From the IMG/VR virus record IMGVR_UViG_2585427736_000018, positions 1 to 6,498 of that record: a stretch of 6,498 nucleotides of DNA. One strand, given 5' to 3'. This document shows positions 1 to 6,498 of the stretch, piece after piece. Made by a program: the position numbers and the translations under genes. The notes beneath the pieces are model-generated. The model was not told where the DNA came from and did no database searches. It was given only the letters and a program-made list of their open reading frames with translations. Positions within the stretch are counted from its first letter, which is position 1, and the number at the start of each line of letters is the position of its first letter. Source of the DNA: a virus. Lineage: Duplodnaviria; Heunggongvirae; Uroviricota; Caudoviricetes.

Positions 1-576
1 TTGCATTTGCCAGAGCTTGACGATGTTGCTTGGATGAAGGGTGTATTGATGCTAAATGTAAGGTTTGATTCAGAAAAGGCTTTAGAGGCCATTCTGTACG
101 TCGCCTCTAAAGCACCGATCCCAGATATCTATCATGTCGGAAAAATTCTTTATTATGCTGACAGGTTTCACCTTGAAAGTTTTGGACGCCTCATAACGGG
201 CGATCACTATAACGCTATGAAGGATGGGCCTGTAGCAAGCAACACATACGATATTATAAAAATTGCTCGTGGAGATGGACGTTACATTCCTAATGGTTGT
301 GATGTCGATTCTGTGCGAAAAGCATTTTCTGTATCAGGTATGACGATTGTGCCGAGCCGTGAAGCTGATGAAGACTTTTTTAGTGACTCAGATTTAGAGT
401 GTATTGATAAGTCTATCGCGATGCTTGGAAACATGTCCTTTGAAGCTATCAGAACCATGAGCCATGACGCGGCATGGGAACAGGCAGATCACAATGGTGA
501 GATGTCTTTGGAATCGATAGTTGCACAGCTAAAAAATAGCAAATTAATACTGGATTATCTGAAGAACGGATATTGA
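1..576 (+). CDS. Panacea/DUF4065-domain protein (PanA/SocA/GepA-like putative antitoxin); 5' end may lie upstream of the window
   Basis: Frame 1 is open from base 1 (first codon TTG, first in-window ATG at 34) to stop TGA 574-576. The segment HVGKILYYADRFHLESFGRLITGDHYNAMKDGPVASNTYDII matches the Panacea core pattern as I recall it (K-h-LYYA...G...Y.A...GPV...Y). The C-terminal LECIDKSIAMLGNMSFEAIRTMSHDAAWEQA resembles the family's conserved C-terminal helix. Recognition is from memory, not a search. Confidence 0.6.
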   Translation: MHLPELDDVAWMKGVLMLNVRFDSEKALEAILYVASKAPIPDIYHVGKILYYADRFHLESFGRLITGDHYNAMKDGPVASNTYDIIKIARGDGRYIPNGCDVDSVRKAFSVSGMTIVPSREADEDFFSDSDLECIDKSIAMLGNMSFEAIRTMSHDAAWEQADHNGEMSLESIVAQLKNSKLILDYLKNGY

Positions 577-581
577 TACTT

Positions 582-1043
582 ATGCTGGGTGATTGTTTCC
601 CTCCTGATTTTAAGGCTAATTTTAGTCGTGAAAGAGGTATATCACCCGGTGATGTATTGTATCTTCATTGTGATTTTACGACCCCACCTAAAGTAAAGTA
701 TATGGTGGTTGTTTGCTGTGAACCTCTTTTAGTTCTTCTAATAAATTCAGATATAAATGAATTTATTAAGAGAAACAATGATCTTATGGCTTGTCAGGTC
801 GAAATTAATAGAGAGGACCATGATTTTCTTAAATGGGACTCATTTGTTAATTGCATTGAGGCTCATGCTGCTTTCGATCTTGAAATTATTAAAGAGAAAA
901 TAGCCATCCAATATGGTGACGTGCTAAAAGGTCGCATTACAGATCATTGTATGAGACAAGTTCGATGTGCAGTTGAGATATCTAAAACTATGGTTAAACG
1001 GCATAAAAAACTGATACTCGCTGCTCTTCAACATTATGAATAA
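582..1043 (+). CDS. hypothetical protein, 153 aa; candidate toxin/effector partner of the upstream Panacea-domain gene
   Basis: ATG at 582 lies 5 nt after the upstream stop (in-frame TTG at 573 is the alternative start); stop TAA 1041-1043 sits inside the terminator hairpin. Only a weak GGA Shine-Dalgarno, so translational coupling is likely. Visibly AT-rich. No transmembrane segment or catalytic motif recognised. The toxin role is inferred only from its position beside a Panacea-domain gene. Confidence 0.5.
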   Translation: MLGDCFPPDFKANFSRERGISPGDVLYLHCDFTTPPKVKYMVVVCCEPLLVLLINSDINEFIKRNNDLMACQVEINREDHDFLKWDSFVNCIEAHAAFDLEIIKEKIAIQYGDVLKGRITDHCMRQVRCAVEISKTMVKRHKKLILAALQHYE

Positions 1044-1076: not shown

Positions 1077-1349
1077 TTAAATGAGCCTTTGTTTATGGGT
1101 TCTGACCCTTTCCCACTCAGCACGCCCTTCTTCTCGCCTTTTGTCTATGTATTCCGCAAGATCCTGAATATTGATGCAACGTTTTGCTTTTTGTGATGTG
1201 CCGATGCGATATGTTGGAACGGGCAACTTACAAGCGTTTGCTTTTGCTTCTGCCGTGGCTGGACTCATACCAAAGTACTTTTGGCTAACTGCTGAGAGTT
1301 CAATGTTTGGGGTATTGAATTCAGCCATCAGTAAAAACAAGGTGTTCAT
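1077..1349 (-). CDS. PrtN-family (pyocin-activator-like) small DNA-binding protein; possible excisionase/recombination directionality factor or regulator
   Basis: ATG at 1349-1347 is preceded by GGAG at 6-nt spacing; the ORF track's upstream start at 1376 is a GTG without a better RBS. The N-terminus MNTLFLLMAEF...YIDKRREE resembles PrtN-family proteins found next to integration modules in prophages (recalled similarity). Stop TAA at 1079-1077. Confidence 0.55.
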   Translation of the reverse strand: MNTLFLLMAEFNTPNIELSAVSQKYFGMSPATAEAKANACKLPVPTYRIGTSQKAKRCINIQDLAEYIDKRREEGRAEWERVRTHKQRLI

Positions 1350-1385
1350 AATTTTCTCCATCAAAACCGGCTGCACCCGGGAAAA

Positions 1386-1958
1386 TCATAATTCTGTGCT
1401 GGTGGCAGGAATTAATTTCTGCCAGATAGCGGAAACATATTTTGCCTGATGACGGGCATCAGCCAGGGCGTTGTGCCGTTCGCCATCGAAAGGCATGTCC
1501 ATTTTGGGGTCGAATCCGATGGAACGCCCAAGCGTAACGATCGTGCGTACATCGTGGTCATTCCAGTATGCCCACGGGCAGATTTGTCCTGCTCGCTCAT
1601 AAGCTCCACGTAAAATTACGTTGTCGAAGGTGGCTCCGTTACCCCAGACTTTTAAATATTTCGTATTGTCTGCGTGCCGGTTAATGAAATGATTTAGTTC
1701 TGAGAGAGCATCGCTGATCGACAAAGTATCATCAATACAGATTGCAGCTCGTGCTTCAGGGCTTTGTTTCAACCACCACAGGATGGTATCGCCGTCAGGT
1801 GTAGCTCCTTGCTCCATAGCACTTTCCAGGCTAACAACCGTATAGAATTCTTGTCCGATGTCTCCGGTTTCTGGAGTGAAGAACACCGCGCCAATGGAAA
1901 CGATCGGTGCATCCTTATTTTTCCCCATCGTCTCAAGGTCGATCATTAAGTTGTTCAT
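1386..1958 (-). CDS. phage DEDDh-type 3'-5' exonuclease (DnaQ-like fold)
   Basis: Exo motifs are visible: IDLETMG (D-x-E), WGNGATFDNVIL (Exo II Asp), HNALADARH (H-x4-D). ATG at 1958-1956 is preceded by GGAGGTGA; a GTG at 1961 is the alternative start. The start overlaps the stop of the upstream DUF551 gene. Confidence 0.75.
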   Translation of the reverse strand: MNNLMIDLETMGKNKDAPIVSIGAVFFTPETGDIGQEFYTVVSLESAMEQGATPDGDTILWWLKQSPEARAAICIDDTLSISDALSELNHFINRHADNTKYLKVWGNGATFDNVILRGAYERAGQICPWAYWNDHDVRTIVTLGRSIGFDPKMDMPFDGERHNALADARHQAKYVSAIWQKLIPATSTEL

Positions 1959-2524
1959 CACTTCACCTCCAGCGGCGGTTCCGGTAGCGGCATCCAGTGA
2001 GTTGCTTGCTCAATACCATTACCCGGCTTAATCGTTGCATCTCCGCGCCGAAATGTGCTTCCGGTATAGCGTGCTGAACATATTAGCGGCTCAACCAGAG
2101 AGCTATCGAAATTCACCGAAATAAGCACATTCTGATGCTTCTCAGGCATTCGCTTACTACAGCTTATCCAGCTATCCGGAGTTACCGGATAGTTGCCATT
2201 TACATCGAAGTTTGGCTCTGCGTCCTGAACTAGGAGGATGTAACCATTTTTGGCTGTATCAAGTTCTAACGCCTCGGTGACGGTACCGAAATAGCGATTA
2301 CCTAAATCAGCATCACAAGTGCTTACATCAATGGAAACTTCCATGCCTTCGATTAATTCTGGCAAGTTGTAAGTTTGGCTTACAGGCTCTGCTTCCAGCG
2401 ATACCAGTGCAATTCGTGCCAGTTCTTCCGCTTCTTCTGCTGGCAGTACAACGTTGCTACCCGGTCCGTATGTTTCGCGCCACTGCTGGATTGTCAGCAG
2501 GCGTTCTTTGGTAATAGTGATCAT
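1958..2524 (-). CDS. DUF551-like phage protein
   Basis: ATG at 2524-2522 overlaps the upstream stop in an ATGA arrangement. The C-terminal WMPLPEPP motif is what I recall as the hallmark of DUF551 proteins common in enterobacterial prophage early regions. Acidic protein. Confidence 0.5.
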   Translation of the reverse strand: MITITKERLLTIQQWRETYGPGSNVVLPAEEAEELARIALVSLEAEPVSQTYNLPELIEGMEVSIDVSTCDADLGNRYFGTVTEALELDTAKNGYILLVQDAEPNFDVNGNYPVTPDSWISCSKRMPEKHQNVLISVNFDSSLVEPLICSARYTGSTFRRGDATIKPGNGIEQATHWMPLPEPPLEVK

Positions 2525-3037: not shown

Positions 3038-3226
3038 TCACTCTCCTTTAGTACGCAAGTGGTTTTTCCAGCGGTTTTGCGCCGCGCTGGGCTTTTTGCA
3101 AAAACCACAATCCATCATCCCGTAATGTTTCATTAACCCCACCCGTCGGTTGCTGAGTCTCACCCACTGCCAGACGCCAGGAGCGTTTCTACGAACTAAC
3201 AGAATCTTTGCTTTACGGTTTTTCAT
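3038..3226 (-). CDS. small hypothetical phage protein, 62 aa, basic
   Basis: ATG at 3226-3224 is preceded by AGGAG at about 9-nt spacing. Stop TGA at 3040-3038 is one base upstream of the next gene's ATG (TGAtATG), placing it inside the coupled operon. No recognised domain; contains a single C-x2-C. Confidence 0.45.
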   Translation of the reverse strand: MKNRKAKILLVRRNAPGVWQWVRLSNRRVGLMKHYGMMDCGFCKKPSAAQNRWKNHLRTKGE

Positions 3227-3398
3227 CGTTTTGCTCTCCTGCGTTTCTTTGCTGCTCGTCGTGCCGATGCAATACCGGTATGGCGGCGCTTTGGTGCCGG
3301 GATGATGTTGTCAGCCATCAGGACATGTGGCTTTGCAATTAGCGCAGAAGCCCAAAAACGAGTCGGGTACGGTAACAAGCCGATACATGCCACACGCA

Positions 3399-4046
3399 CT
3401 ACTCACCTCCGTTGATGCGAATGCCAGCGGCACGGGAATCATTCCATCGCTTTACTTCTTCACGAATTACGTCAATGCATTCTTTCGAATCCATTAGGTA
3501 ATCTTCATCAAAAAGCCTTTCCTGTTCGTTTTCTATCGCAACAATGATTGCTTCAACTAACTTTTGTGCCTGAGAACCACTTTCTAACTCTGCAATGCGC
3601 TTCTCTGCGGCTTCCAGCTTCTCGCGCATATCGTCAACGTACTCGACCAGAGATCCGCCAGCAGGAATTTCGCACTCCTCGACCAGTTGGAAGTAGATAT
3701 CAGCTGCGGCCCGTGTGTTGCTATGCCTAGCGTCGCCCATCTCACCTTCACGAAGAGCATCGCGTTCGGCGGTAAGATTGGCTATTTTGCTGTCTTTGCC
3801 TTCCAGCTCAACGCGCAGCTTCCCTACCGTAAGCGCAATATCCTCGTTCTCCTGGTCACGGCGTTTGATGTATTGCTGGTTTCTTTCCCGTTCATCCAAC
3901 AATGCCAGCGCGATATCTGGCGAAAAGTGCTTCATAAAATCGTTAAGCGCATTAATTCGCTGATCGAAAGGCATTACAGGTGCTTCACCAGCAATTTTTG
4001 TTTTTTCAGCGATTTCACGAAGCTTTTGATAATCAATCTTGCTCAC
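3399..4046 (-). CDS. Ead/Ea22-like coiled-coil phage protein
   Basis: GTG start at 4046-4044 is preceded by a strong AAGGAGG at 6-nt spacing and overlaps the upstream stop (GTGA). The N-terminus MSKIDYQKLREIAEK and the Glu/Arg/Leu-rich heptad-like middle resemble lambda Ea22-family early-left proteins (recalled). Confidence 0.5.
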   Translation of the reverse strand: MSKIDYQKLREIAEKTKIAGEAPVMPFDQRINALNDFMKHFSPDIALALLDERERNQQYIKRRDQENEDIALTVGKLRVELEGKDSKIANLTAERDALREGEMGDARHSNTRAAADIYFQLVEECEIPAGGSLVEYVDDMREKLEAAEKRIAELESGSQAQKLVEAIIVAIENEQERLFDEDYLMDSKECIDVIREEVKRWNDSRAAGIRINGGE

Positions 4047-4591
4047 TGGTTGCCTCCTTTGCGAAGCTCTGCAGCGAAATATACAGCTGCGGAAACAATA
4101 GCTGCATGTCGGTATTCACCATCAGAAAATAAAGAATCTCCCTTAAGTGCATTGACGATACTCTGATGATTTTTTGCCAGCATCTCCACGCCCTGCGCCC
4201 GTACTTCAGCCAGAAAAGCATCGGTGGCTGGCATATTTCCTGTTGCCTTCATGGCCTCCAAAATAACCAGAACGCCATCTCGCCCAACCACCTCAGCGAT
4301 AACCTCGGTGTTGTCGCCAACAACATCGCAGAATGCCTGAACTGCCTTACGAGCCAGTTCATTCTCCGCCGCCAGCGCCGAAAACTTCTCGTGTGCCAAC
4401 TTAACAGCCGCATCAGCCTGCTTAATTGACTCAATCGCTCTCTGCTGGTCTTCGGACAGAGCCGAAATCTTGGCCTCCGCTTCAGCAAATTTACGCACCA
4501 GATATTCAGCGTTTGTTTCGTTAACTTTTAAATCTCGTGGTACACATTTCCCGCGAAGAAACCCTTCCATTTCGAAAACATTCATGCGCAT
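4043..4591 (-). CDS. hypothetical phage protein, 182 aa, Ala-rich with predicted coiled-coil N-terminal half; sits where yfdS sits in CPS-53
   Basis: ATG at 4591-4589 is preceded by GGAG at 8-nt spacing; the coding region overlaps the yfdR-like stop by 10 nt (an alternative ATG at 4585 gives an ATGA overlap). No recognised catalytic motif. Confidence 0.5.
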   Translation of the reverse strand: MRMNVFEMEGFLRGKCVPRDLKVNETNAEYLVRKFAEAEAKISALSEDQQRAIESIKQADAAVKLAHEKFSALAAENELARKAVQAFCDVVGDNTEVIAEVVGRDGVLVILEAMKATGNMPATDAFLAEVRAQGVEMLAKNHQSIVNALKGDSLFSDGEYRHAAIVSAAVYFAAELRKGGNQ

Positions 4592-5118
4592 TTGCGTAAC
4601 TCCGATAACTCGTTAAAACGTTCCATAAACATCCCATAGGCATGGCCTGGCGACAGTGGAATCACGTTGAACATCTCTGTTGCCGGGATGCCTTCCAGTA
4701 CAGGCCAGAAAGAGCCATCATCAAGCCCGAGATCGCGGCGTTCGGTTGCCAGCATGATAAGATCGGCATATTTCACGGGCGTGCTCATAACCGGGGGTAA
4801 CCCGTATTTCTCACGGATTACGGCGTCTATTTTTTCTTCCATCCGTTTATAGTCAGGAAGAAGGCGTTTCAGTGGCGCGGGGATGTCCTGACAATACGCT
4901 TCTGTTGCATCATGCATTAACGCTTCGAAAGCAAACTCCTGCGGTACCAGTTGGCTGCAAAGCACCGCATGTTGGGCGACGCTGTAGAAGTGTGAAAGAT
5001 GTCCTGCAAAGCGACAGATATTTGAAAGGGAAACCGCGATATCGTTAATCACGATGTCGTCTTTATCTATCCTGTCATAATAAAAATGCTTCCCGGAAAA
5101 AGTTTTAATAAATGACAT
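4582..5118 (-). CDS. yfdR: HD-domain phosphohydrolase, YfdR-like 5'-deoxynucleotidase
   Basis: ATG at 5118-5116 is preceded by GGAG at 7-nt spacing (the ORF track's longer form starts at a GTG at 5145). The product is 178 aa, the length I recall for E. coli YfdR. HD motifs are visible: AQHAV (His), LMHDATEAY (His-Asp) and a downstream Asp in CQDIP. Confidence 0.7.
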   Translation of the reverse strand: MSFIKTFSGKHFYYDRIDKDDIVINDIAVSLSNICRFAGHLSHFYSVAQHAVLCSQLVPQEFAFEALMHDATEAYCQDIPAPLKRLLPDYKRMEEKIDAVIREKYGLPPVMSTPVKYADLIMLATERRDLGLDDGSFWPVLEGIPATEMFNVIPLSPGHAYGMFMERFNELSELRKCA

Positions 5119-5211
5119 TTTGTTCTCCACGTATATGCGCTGCACCGCGCTGAATTCTGGTAAAAGGAAGCCCTCACCATCCGGTGATTATTGAGTTAAT
5201 TACGTTTCCAT

Positions 5212-5233
5212 AAATGCCCCCGCAGGGGCATTT
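5212..5233 (-). other. intergenic stem-loop between yfdQ-like and yfdR-like genes (possible attenuator or mRNA-stabilising hairpin)
   Basis: Perfect 9-bp inverted repeat AAATGCCCC (5212-5220) / GGGGCATTT (5225-5233) with loop CGCA, 12 nt downstream of the yfdQ-like stop on the minus strand. No clean U-tract follows in either orientation, so it is not called a terminator. Confidence 0.45.
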
Positions 5234-5245
5234 GCAGTAATGAAA

Positions 5246-6070
5246 TCAGGCGGTGAAAGTACCAATAAAGGTTTCGACTTTGCTGTCTTTGAATTTCTCA
5301 ACAAGCAGATCACGAAATTCGTTAGCCATTTCTTCCTGCACCGCTTCCAGCTGAATAATGCGCAGAACCAGTACAGGACGATCGCCAGTGATAATGCTGA
5401 GGCGTAATTTAAATGGACGTTCTTTCAGACCTTCAAACGGAACGCATTTAAATTCAAATGCCACTGGCATAATATCTTTGGTCTTCGCTTCGACAGACTC
5501 CATCAGGGAGCGTTTGCCGCTGAAGTCATTATCTTCAAAATCAGCGGTCTGGTTTGCTTCAATCGTGATTTTACGGACCGCCGCAGCCGCTTTTGTTGCC
5601 TGAATGGTGTCACCATTAGCATCAAAGCCCACAAGGTAGTCGGCCCAGTCTTCAATCCATTCTGCCAGTGATTTCTGGGAGTTACGCTCGCCATTAACAG
5701 ACAACAGAGCAGAGAACGGTGCTGTCTTTTTCAGTTTGAGAGTGGCGGTGTTATCTGCGTGACCTGGTTCATCAATAGTACCCAGGTTAAGCACACTGAC
5801 GGCACGCATATTATCAGCATCGATAAAGCAGCGGGTGCCTTCATCTGCAAGATCTTTAGAATAACGGGTAAAGTCATCGATGCTGGCAGTGGAAAGCGCA
5901 CCACGGAAACGGAAGCGATTTAAATTAAATTTTTCCAGATCATGAATGCGGAAATTCTCAGGCAATGCCACAGCATCGGCACCAATCTTACTGATAATTT
6001 CATTAACACCCTGAGCAGAAATAAGGGCATGGATTTGATTAATTGCGGTTGCGTCTAAGTTCTGAGACAT
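5246..6070 (-). CDS. yfdQ: DUF2303-family phage protein, YfdQ-like
   Basis: ATG at 6070-6068 is preceded by GAGGA at 6-nt spacing. The product is 274 aa, the length I recall for E. coli CPS-53 YfdQ, and it sits immediately upstream of the yfdR-like gene as in CPS-53. Confidence 0.65.
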
Positions 6071-6135
6071 AATAAGTCCTCACTATATAAAGATATTCAG
6101 TGATGAGATAAATAATCAGTTAATTAAAAACGATA

Positions 6136-6498
6136 TTAACGACCTGCTGCGCGGAGTTTTCCGTCAGGTTCACCGGCAAGAGTCAGTAACTGTCCCTGGT
6201 CTTCCTGCAGAATAGTCAGGCGACCACCGCGATTGACATACATCGGTGTTTCGGTGGTGTCTTCTTCGGAAATATTCCCGCGGTTAGTCGGGCGATCATA
6301 TGAGAGTTTGTGTTTGATTTTCACACGGTTCTCATCAAATGGTTCGATTTCCAGGTTGAGTGAGACCTTACCTTTGGTTTTCGTGTTCATCACACCGGAA
6401 GCGACTTCACTGAGAACTGCGCCGATTTTGGTTTCAAATACGCCGCCGTCCAGCTCCCCGATAAATGCCTGCACATCAGTACTGCGTTCGCTAGCCAT
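6136..6498 (-). CDS. hypothetical phage protein in the yfdP position; start codon coincides with the window edge
   Basis: ATG at 6498-6496 is the last three bases of the window, so the RBS cannot be seen and the ORF could extend further. Stop TAA at 6138-6136. The 120-aa product and its position upstream of yfdQ are consistent with a YfdP-like gene (synteny only). Confidence 0.45.
   Translation of the reverse strand: MASERSTDVQAFIGELDGGVFETKIGAVLSEVASGVMNTKTKGKVSLNLEIEPFDENRVKIKHKLSYDRPTNRGNISEEDTTETPMYVNRGGRLTILQEDQGQLLTLAGEPDGKLRAAGR

Follow-up and report, generated by a model that had tools for sequence, protein, structure and literature searches.

The question raised by this locus is whether yfdQ and yfdR, two adjacent genes carried by a phage, act together as a pair that manipulates the nucleotide pool of the host. 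This had been proposed in the initial annotation of the window, by which we mean the whole stretch of DNA that was analysed (6,498 nucleotides, IMG/VR record IMGVR_UViG_2585427736_000018). An ORF check of the window found both reading frames on the minus strand, together with the genes on either side of them:

6136..6498, minus strand, yfdP (120 aa), directly upstream of yfdQ, with its start codon at the window's final base
5246..6070, minus strand, yfdQ (274 aa, DUF2303), from Pfam, PHROG and the K-12 alignment
4582..5118, minus strand, yfdR (178 aa), HD-domain phosphohydrolase of the YfbR-like dNMPase type, from the K-12 alignment and phrog_318
4457..4591, minus strand, yfdS-like gene downstream of yfdR (whole gene 4043..4591), its first 45 codons, which share homology with the N-terminal part of K-12 YfdS

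Alignment to E. coli K-12 upheld the names given to the two genes. YfdR was identical to K-12 YfdR (b2361) at 174 of 178 positions (98%) and YfdQ to K-12 YfdQ (b2360) at 271 of 274, both without gaps, and YfdP matched its K-12 counterpart at 116 of 120. The ATG of yfdR at 5118 is the K-12 start; a longer frame opening at GTG 5145 was set aside as an artefact of the ORF listing. YfdR, YfdQ and YfdP matched phrog_318 (E 1e-109), phrog_210 (E 2e-120) and phrog_204 (E 2e-49) respectively, and homologues of YfdP bear the newer Pfam family PF27127. YfdQ matched DUF2303 (PF10065) over its full length, residues 7-272 aligning with positions 2-269 of the 269-position profile at 309.5 bits (E 2.3e-92; the cut-off is 26.6). 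Its exact sequence is the representative of a cluster with 10,812 members.

The phage setting was also borne out. The neighbouring genes (yfdP, Ead/Ea22, DUF551, a Rv2179c-like exonuclease and a PrtN/TorI-like excisionase) place yfdQ and yfdR in the early-left (pL) operon of a lambdoid prophage of the CPS-53/SfV/mEp460 type. Of 5426 complete E. coli genomes, 3012 contained the 1489-bp yfdQ-yfdR interval at 90-99% identity, with the RefSeq names 'YfdQ family protein' and 'yfdR: 5'-deoxynucleotidase', and it was found in the lambdoid phages mEp460, SfV and cdtI and in Stx2 phages. As the pair is present in so many genomes and is named in RefSeq, these are two intact, previously annotated prophage genes, already known and ordinary. 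Less usual are the constant partner of yfdQ, which is yfdP and not yfdR, and the conserved, folded RNA-like element that sits between yfdQ and yfdR.

When the window was compared with K-12 by blastn, a mosaic block, yfdP-yfdQ-yfdR, extended from 4488 to 6498 with 97% identity over 2011 bp. The boundary of the block shared with CPS-53 lies at 4488, and the identical break point was seen in SfV and in Stx2c phages. It falls within the yfdS-like gene, whose first 10 nt overlap the end of yfdR; this gene is identical to YfdS at 40 of residues 1-45 and is unrelated beyond them. The block is a pL-operon module that prophages of this type exchange horizontally. Its survival in the defective prophage CPS-53 might suggest that the genes are kept for the benefit of the lysogen (stress tolerance) and not of the phage. 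We regard this as very improbable, since the same block is carried by propagating phages, both temperate and virulent, and since it lies within a repressed early operon and travels as a phage mosaic module.

YfdR, host DNA metabolism and DnaA

The HD motif, said in the initial annotation to be visible in the protein, was intact. The metal-binding signature consists of H50 (codon 4969-71), H69-D70 (4909-14) and D119 (4762-64), and is accompanied by E73 (4900-02), D78 (4885-87) and R36-F37 (5008-13). The substitutions relative to K-12 (R16K, D18N, S155A and E169D) fall at none of these residues. Homologues of YfdR were present in 335 phage records, many of them without YfdQ, and in the alignment all eight residues were invariant out to Caulobacter and Bacillus phages. 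In phiCbK, phiKT and the Bacillus phage Nate, relatives sharing 36-39% identity kept the catalytic residues and adjoin a helicase and a replication initiator, or a thymidine kinase. Because the catalytic residues are invariant even in phages that lack YfdQ, an enzymatic role for YfdR in nucleotide or DNA metabolism appears plausible.

The nature of the substrate is less certain. K-12 YfdR is indeed annotated as a 5'-deoxynucleotidase, and the label of phrog_318 is 'deoxyribonucleoside 5' monophosphate phosphatase'. However, YfdR scored below the thresholds of the YfbR 5'-deoxynucleotidase models, reaching 24.3 bits against 25.9 for Pfam PF12917 (over residues 41-104 only) and 19.9 bits against a cut-off of 122 for NCBIfam NF003009. 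Judged from its sequence, YfdR would work like YfbR and yet not be its orthologue, and since it scores under the curated YfbR cut-offs, its true substrate may be something other than a canonical dNMP. In the passages of Noguchi and Katayama that cite Zimmerman 2008, K-12 YfdR is described as a weak dNMP phosphatase in vitro, with nucleotide affinities far below those of YfbR and a function that 'remains elusive' (PMC4776307). Deletion of yfdR in an engineered strain did not raise the yield of CMP (PMC10870394).

Published work has otherwise linked YfdR to the initiation of replication. K-12 YfdR binds DnaA domain I in a Phe46-dependent manner and competes with DiaA and DnaB, and its inhibitory effect was seen both in vitro and in vivo (PMC4776307). 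Multicopy yfdQ-yfdR together with yfdS or yfdT inhibited initiation at oriC, an effect that required both yfdQ and yfdR (PMC4776307; the DnaA binding and the inhibition are restated in PMC12122000). No phenotype of YfdR other than these two, DnaA binding and oriC inhibition, has been published from in vivo and biochemical work. The binding was reported for the K-12 protein, from which the YfdR predicted from the window differs at 4 of 178 positions.

These observations, along with the precedent of lambda P (cited in PMC4776307), raise the possibility that inhibition of host initiation is itself the selected function. YfdR would then be mainly a binder of DnaA domain I and a competitor of DiaA and DnaB, YfdQ and either YfdS or YfdT would help it, and catalysis would be vestigial. 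We consider this conceivable but rather unlikely. The invariance of every catalytic residue in Caulobacter and Bacillus phages argues for selection on catalysis, and the window has no YfdT and, of YfdS, only the first 45 residues. Moreover, the effect was obtained on overexpression only; deletion of yfdQRST in K-12 left initiation unaffected, and the effect may, as the authors themselves allow, be artefactual (PMC4776307).

The coupling of yfdQ to yfdP

We examined the neighbours of yfdQ in a species-level genome scan, which yielded 78 loci. It replaced a scan of viral contigs with a YfdQ alignment, in which every locus returned was from E. coli and 100% identical, so that it was uninformative on diversity. 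yfdP directly preceded yfdQ in 76 of the 78 loci, while yfdR followed it in 57. In the 21 loci without yfdR, the slot was filled by unrelated genes (an exonuclease, an SSB or unknowns). The virulent Xanthomonas phage CP2 has yfdP and yfdQ and no yfdR: its yfdP homologue (38% identity, E 3e-17) lies directly upstream of yfdQ, and genes for Erf, a YqaJ exonuclease and SSB adjoin the two. The coupling seen across species is that of yfdQ with yfdP, not with yfdR.

The structure of a YfdQ homologue has been solved (PDB 9o7m, 'YfdQ Protein', 36 chains of one sequence, E 1.5e-44). From the chain count of this entry, YfdQ is probably a large homo-oligomer; a literature search on the entry found no paper. 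A fold search with the AF2 model of YfdQ (pLDDT 77) gave no informative match.

These neighbours bear on whether yfdP-yfdQ, with or without yfdR, could be an unrecognised function in recombination or the handling of DNA ends, replacing the Rec module in lambdoid phages where that is missing. The genes occupy the gam/bet/exo slot of the pL operon and are common in phages with no Rec module, such as LLS and ST64B (PMC12315714). An exonuclease or SSB often adjoins them, those of CP2 abut Erf, YqaJ and SSB, and annealing proteins typically form assemblies of many chains. Against this, the cluster also occurs in phages with a complete Rec module, and the authors of the LLS study judge a recombinase role unlikely (PMC12315714); CP2, too, has its own Erf. 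Fold searches with YfdQ and YfdP showed no match to a DNA-binding fold, whether of Rad52, RecT, Erf or another kind, and neither fold nor profile comparison brought out a similarity of the two proteins to single-strand annealing proteins (Rad52/Redbeta/Erf/RecT). We give this reading a low probability.

The proposal with which we began, that YfdQ and YfdR are a functional pair remodelling the host nucleotide pool, perhaps against nucleotide-depleting defence, can now be weighed. The adjacency of the genes in 57 of 78 loci, the intact HD motif, the RefSeq name and the need for both yfdQ and yfdR in the K-12 multicopy experiments are in its favour. The pairing itself is weakened, since yfdQ is coupled to yfdP, unrelated genes replace yfdR in 21 loci, CP2 does without it, and the YfdR family is widespread without YfdQ. 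Pull-downs also suggest that YfdQ does not bind YfdR with high affinity (PMC4776307). The nucleotide-pool part is weakened further by the sub-threshold YfbR scores and by the published phenotype being limited to DnaA, and a dNMP phosphatase would decrease, and not increase, the precursors of dNTPs. What stands are the gene identities, the visible HD motif and the phage context, and an enzymatic role of YfdR is plausible. As regards a link to defence or counter-defence, which the initial annotation offered as speculation, we found no supporting literature, and PADLOC (at E <= 0.01) returned no defence-protein match for YfdP, YfdQ, YfdR or their neighbours. As a whole, we think this proposal unlikely.

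The explanation that we favour, with moderate confidence, treats yfdP-yfdQ-yfdR as a module of the pL operon. After induction or infection, YfdR would be made early and would act on host DNA metabolism. Its conserved, selected activity would be the dephosphorylation of deoxynucleoside monophosphates or of a related 5'-phosphorylated substrate, and in E. coli phages it may additionally restrain initiation of the host chromosome via DnaA. YfdQ would not be the dedicated partner of YfdR; it would be the second gene of an older and more widely conserved yfdP-yfdQ unit, to which yfdR or other genes of DNA metabolism may have become attached across a conserved structured intergenic element.

If YfdR truly restrains DnaA, or drains dNMPs on induction, it would be part of the prophage's takeover of host replication. 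That yfdP and yfdQ form the evolutionary unit, while yfdR encodes an HD enzyme with a distribution of its own, argues against viewing YfdQ and YfdR as a single machine and guides the choice of genes to co-delete. The block is carried by over half of the complete E. coli genomes and by many phages of the Shiga-toxin and serotype-converting kinds, yet of its three proteins YfdR alone has been characterised biochemically in any way.

The structured element between yfdQ and yfdR

Following the yfdQ stop codon we observed a three-hairpin element, and a second copy of its small hairpin was present elsewhere in the window:

5122..5248, minus strand, three-hairpin element of 127 nt, after the yfdQ stop codon (covariance model R1)
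5233..5212, minus strand, H1, terminator-like, AAATGCCCC-TGCG-GGGGCATTT
5187..5174, minus strand, H2, TCACC-GGAT-GGTGA
after H2, minus strand, conserved GGG(A/C)TTC...ACCA tract of the intergenic element
5150..5137, minus strand, H3, GCGC-GGTGCA-GCGC, about 10 nt upstream of the Shine-Dalgarno of yfdR
1367..1380, minus strand, second copy of the small hairpin, CCGG-GTGCAG-CCGG, before the PrtN/TorI-like excisionase gene

The covariance model R1 scored 102 bits at the intergenic element (E 5e-33). Across 83 distinct aligned sequences, pairing held in 93.8% of cells, as against 41-55% when the partner was slid, and 13 of 20 pairs had compensatory changes; the covariation is strong. Rfam gave no match to the element or the hairpins at gathering thresholds, and at E <= 10 only trivial hairpin matches. 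The 9-bp stem of H1 covaries and is followed by the tail AUUUAUGG or AUUUAGUG; a consensus terminator scan made no call. No convincing sigma-70 hexamers were seen by eye in the element, and none were returned by a scan.

The hairpin at 1367..1380 precedes the GGAG and ATG (1349) of the excisionase gene by 8 nt, and mEp460 has the same hairpin ahead of its own excisionase gene. Early genes are repeatedly preceded, close to their Shine-Dalgarno sequences, by hairpins whose loop is a constant (G/U)(U/G)GCAG; a literature search on GUGCAG/GTGCAG hairpins in phage returned nothing relevant. The full element is usually found about 2 kb into the operon, and in some contigs in the pL leader.

Several candidates for the working of these hairpins were discarded. 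The GTG or TTG of the hairpin loop was considered as the start of a leader peptide, and was dropped as the frames and stops were inconsistent between loci. The small Arg-rich ORFs 3223..3399 and 3038..3226 (minus strand), considered as N-like hairpin binders, had no homologues in other hairpin-bearing loci. YfdQ as the binder was unsupported, as contigs such as L258 have the element and hairpins and no yfdQ within 9.5 kb.

Taken together, we tentatively suggest that the element and hairpins might constitute an undescribed cis-acting RNA system of N-less lambdoid phages of the CPS-53/SfV/LLS type. The hairpins could be sites of factor binding (the factor being of phage or host origin) or of processing, for termination or antitermination in the early operon, mRNA processing or translation, and the element would mark the junctions at which yfdP-yfdQ and yfdR modules are exchanged. 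LLS-type phages lack N, and a put-like RNA has been suggested for them (PMC12315714); the element and loop-conserved hairpins could bear on early-operon regulation in such phages, the question raised for LLS. Like lambda nut and HK022 put, the element contains hairpins and lies on the sense strand in a lambdoid early operon. However, put and nut occur as a pair, at pL and pR, whereas the element occurs as one full copy per phage region, R1 having found a single one in a 25-kb prophage segment that included the pR operon. Identity with HK022 put was rejected, as the putL and putR sequences are dissimilar and R1 finds nothing in the HK022 immunity region.

Comparison with known systems

YfbR shares with YfdR the H...HD...D ligands and the HDA(S/T)E and (G/Q)D(L/I)P motifs, and both are reported as dNMP phosphatases in the passages noted above (PMC4776307). 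The two differ in that they are only about 22% identical and that YfbR is a chromosomal housekeeping enzyme while YfdR is phage-borne. The closest solved structure to YfdR by sequence is Atu1052 of Agrobacterium (PDB 2gz4; E 9e-14 over residues 20-175), in which every motif residue (H, HD, D) aligned; this is, however, an uncharacterised HD protein from outside phages.

The pre-early protein Dmp of phage T5 is a 5'-deoxyribonucleotidase of the HD type that dephosphorylates dNMPs during host takeover, and the label of phrog_318 presumably derives from it. T5 couples Dmp to massive degradation of host DNA, whereas no comparable host-DNA-degrading nuclease system was evident in the window.

For YfdQ, the nearest comparison is the DUF2303 protein of PDB 9o7m, from a CP2-like phage of Xanthomonas/Xylella, to which it matched over its full length. 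A yfdP homologue precedes yfdQ in this phage group, as it does in the window, although the phage is a virulent podophage without yfdR, where the gene is followed instead by Erf, YqaJ and SSB.

The closest relative of the whole block is that of K-12 CPS-53 (KpLE1). CPS-53 differs in lacking the Ea22, the Rv2179c-like exonuclease and other genes of the window's prophage, and its downstream genes, among them the YfdT that is missing from the window, diverge past codon 45 of the yfdS-like gene. Nevertheless, its YfdP, YfdQ and YfdR (b2359-b2361) are 97%, 99% and 98% identical to those of the window, and the two blocks agree in gene order, in spacing and in overlapping the gene that follows by 10 nt.

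The yfdP-yfdQ-yfdR block and its operon

We observed that, between 1077 and 6498, every gene of the window is carried on the minus strand. The same gene string runs leftward from a cI-like repressor gene both in an E. coli prophage nearly identical to this one and in mEp460. The string constitutes a lambdoid early-left (pL) operon. The genes are as follows.

6136..6498, minus strand: yfdP, directly upstream of yfdQ; 116/120 residues identical to E. coli K-12
5246..6070, minus strand: yfdQ, 274 aa; full-length Pfam DUF2303 match (E 2.3e-92); 271/274 residues identical to K-12 YfdQ
4582..5118, minus strand: yfdR, 178 aa; 174/178 residues identical to K-12 YfdR
4043..4591, minus strand: gene after yfdR, with a 10-nt overlap at the yfdR stop; in common with YfdS are residues 1-45 only (4457..4591, MRMNVFEMEGF...)
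Minus strand, remaining genes of the string: an Ead/Ea22 protein gene, a phrog_9263 gene and a DUF551 protein gene
1386..1961, minus strand: Rv2179c-like 3'-5' exonuclease of the same operon (PF16473, E 9e-76)
1077..1376 as listed, minus strand: PrtN/TorI-like excisionase, listed start GTG 1376
573..1043, plus strand: 156-aa ORF, no family assigned; 4-nt overlap with the next entry
1..576, plus strand: SocA/Panacea-domain protein (PF13274, E 5e-20)

The alignments to K-12 bear out the names YfdQ and YfdR proposed in the initial annotation. The 187-aa ORF listed with a GTG start is a mere upstream extension of the real yfdR gene, which starts at ATG-5118. The block of 2011 bp at 4488..6498 (yfdP, yfdQ, yfdR, the spacers and codons 1-34 of the gene that follows) is 97% identical to CPS-53, the cryptic K-12 prophage that carries these three genes, and SfV and Stx2c phages show the same block limits. 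The yfdQ-yfdR interval is present in 3012 of 5426 complete E. coli genomes, where the PGAP names are 'YfdQ family protein' and 'yfdR: 5'-deoxynucleotidase', the latter agreeing with the activity first ascribed to YfdR. Given these identities and the frequency of the named genes, the original observation is confirmed, and the genes are already known and annotated. What is added here is the coupling of yfdP to yfdQ, the independence of YfdR, the mosaic limits of the block and two unexplained RNA-like features.

The mosaic junction at 4488 is sharp: homology to CPS-53, SfV and Stx2c phages stops 34 codons into the gene after yfdR. Of YfdS, the window carries no more than the 45 N-terminal residues, and yfdT is absent. 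The MRMN... N-terminal module also begins different proteins in other contigs. Between the Ea22 and phrog_9263 genes we noted two small basic minus-strand ORFs (3223..3399 and 3038..3226), each with a good Shine-Dalgarno sequence and the first with an arginine-rich tail, APKRRHTGIASARRAAKKRRRAKR; no homologue of either was seen among the 78 related loci. For the phrog_9263 gene, the probable start is ATG 3036 (MALTHREL) and not 3108. Past the excisionase gene, at the prophage end, the SocA/Panacea gene and the 156-aa ORF resemble a cargo antitoxin-toxin pair of the PanA type. In a related prophage (L002), the matching position is occupied by a YafO-family toxin pair.

Coupling of yfdQ to yfdP

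When one genome per species was scanned, 78 loci were found to encode a relative of YfdQ. The yfdP gene lay directly upstream in 76 of the 78 (the exceptions being one contig start and one partial match), whereas yfdR lay downstream in only 57; elsewhere its slot held an Rv2179c-like exonuclease, an SSB or an unassigned gene. A homologue of this exonuclease occurs within 6 kb of yfdQ in 26/78 loci, and in three it directly replaces yfdR.

In Xanthomonas phage CP2 (L162 2639..8241), a YfdP homologue precedes YfdQ, and YfdR is missing. There, YfdQ is followed by a large unassigned protein of 511 aa, an Erf annealing protein, a YqaJ exonuclease, an endonuclease and an SSB. From these counts and the CP2 arrangement, we conclude that the conserved unit is yfdP-yfdQ, and that yfdR is a frequent yet separable neighbour.

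The structure of a YfdQ homologue has been solved (PDB 9o7m, 'YfdQ Protein', 36 chains of one sequence), the sequence being from CP2-like virulent Xanthomonas/Xylella phages; no publication on this entry was found in the literature. No functional lead came from structure prediction, either for YfdQ (pLDDT 77) or for YfdP (pLDDT 70). The authors of the phage LLS study described this cluster of three genes in lambdoid phages both possessing and lacking a Rec module, and judged a recombinase role unlikely (PMC12315714). A link to defence or counter-defence, raised earlier as speculation, found no support, as PADLOC returned no match at E <= 0.01 for YfdP, YfdQ, YfdR or their neighbours.

A structured element and a recurrent hairpin

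The spacer between yfdQ and yfdR is conserved across Enterobacterales despite flanking proteins of only 55-70% identity, and folds into three hairpins.

5122..5248, minus strand: 127-nt element, directly after the yfdQ stop
5212..5233, minus strand: H1, terminator-like, immediately past the stop codon
5174..5187, minus strand: H2, consensus ATCGCC-N3-5-GGCGA, then a conserved GGGATTCG..CAACCAAAA tract
5137..5150, minus strand: H3, loop (G/T)TGCAG, some 10 nt ahead of the following Shine-Dalgarno sequence

The three hairpins have support from covariation. Among 39 sequences of at most 90% mutual identity, 89.6% of cells pair, against 40-50% when the partner column is slid, with double changes in 12/20 pairs. 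In 83 distinct sequences the values were 93.8% against 41-55%, with 13/20 pairs compensatory, although this alignment leans towards structure, since it was fitted to the model. As G-U pairs are frequent, a sense-strand RNA is favoured over a DNA palindrome.

Its occurrence is independent of yfdR: we saw the element between yfdQ and yfdR, between yfdQ and another gene, between another gene and yfdR, and with neither. In one locus (L258, 5380..5512) it lies in a leader of about 380 nt between a pL-like promoter, by a cI-like gene, and the first early gene. Each phage region has one full copy. The element matched no Rfam family and does not resemble HK022 putL or putR. By blastn, it is present unannotated in LLS, ST64B, phiNP, mEp390 and 118970_sal3; LLS lacks N, and its authors speculated on put-like antitermination (PMC12315714).

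In 74 species-level loci (863 kb) we also counted, on the sense strand of the operon, all perfect hairpins that combine a 5-bp stem with a 6-nt loop. The commonest loops among 1281 hairpins were GTGCAG (34), TTGCAG (17) and TGGCAG (12), the next reaching 9; the first two together occurred 45 times in sense and 6 in antisense orientation. Their G+C-rich stems vary (GCGCG, GGCGG, CCCGG, ACCGG, CGCAG and others), and they lie 2-10 nt ahead of the GGAG Shine-Dalgarno of yfdP, yfdR or its replacement, the excisionase and other early genes, in sense orientation in both early operons. Intergenic copies with the constant (G/T)(T/G)GCAG loop are:

5137..5150 (H3) and 1367..1380, minus strand: the window
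30803..30818 and 25990..26003, minus strand, and 37119..37134, plus strand: mEp460 (L285)

In the complete mEp460 genome such hairpins are restricted to the early region, where the pR operon on the opposite strand has them too. Within one genome the excess is modest (3 observed vs 0.7 after shuffling), and between loci many copies are homologous, so the evidence is the varying stems and several non-homologous positions rather than raw counts. The listed excisionase start, GTG 1376, falls within a GTGCAG loop; given the hairpin at 1367..1380, the true start is likely ATG 1349 (MNTLFLL...), which is preceded by GGAG and conserved in other loci. Both RNA-like features merit separate study.

YfdR and its relation to YfbR

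The HD signature of YfdR is complete (H50, H69-D70 and D119), in line with the HD motifs reported initially. The protein has homologues in 335 phage records, among them virulent and jumbo phages infecting Caulobacter, Bacillus, Rhizobium and Pseudomonas. When YfdR is aligned with its counterparts from phiCbK, phiKT and Bacillus phage Nate (36-39% identity), the positions that never vary coincide exactly with the predicted catalytic and substrate residues, and the gene in these phages adjoins a helicase and replication initiator, or a thymidine kinase. Residues and neighbours together argue that YfdR is selected for catalysis, independently of YfdQ. The earlier proposal that YfdQ and YfdR act as a pair on the host nucleotide pool is upheld in part for YfdR and finds no support as regards the pair.

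YfdR binds DnaA domain I via Phe46, competing with DiaA and DnaB, and multicopy yfdQ-yfdR with yfdS or yfdT inhibits oriC initiation, while deletion gives no phenotype (PMC4776307). For the roles of the three proteins in the phage life cycle we infer an account that we hold to be somewhat more probable than not. YfdR would be an early-expressed HD phosphohydrolase acting on deoxynucleoside 5'-monophosphates or a related substrate while the phage takes over its host; a further effect in E. coli phages would be to slow host initiation through the experimentally shown DnaA binding. YfdQ would belong with YfdP in a module apart from YfdR. The present analysis supplies the gene identities, the intact motifs and the statistics of distribution and coupling, and the literature supplies enzyme activity and DnaA binding.

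Among solved structures, YfdR is nearest to that of Atu1052, an uncharacterised HD protein (E 9e-14, motifs aligned). As a YfbR orthologue YfdR was rejected, its score lying under the curated cut-offs of both YfbR models. A passage of Noguchi & Katayama, citing Zimmerman 2008, puts its nucleotide affinities much below those of YfbR, and describes its function as one that 'remains elusive' (PMC4776307). YfdR and YfbR differ widely in sequence (about 22% identity), and YfdR also keeps E73, D78 and R36-F37, the counterparts of the YfbR motifs HDASE, GDLP and R-W.
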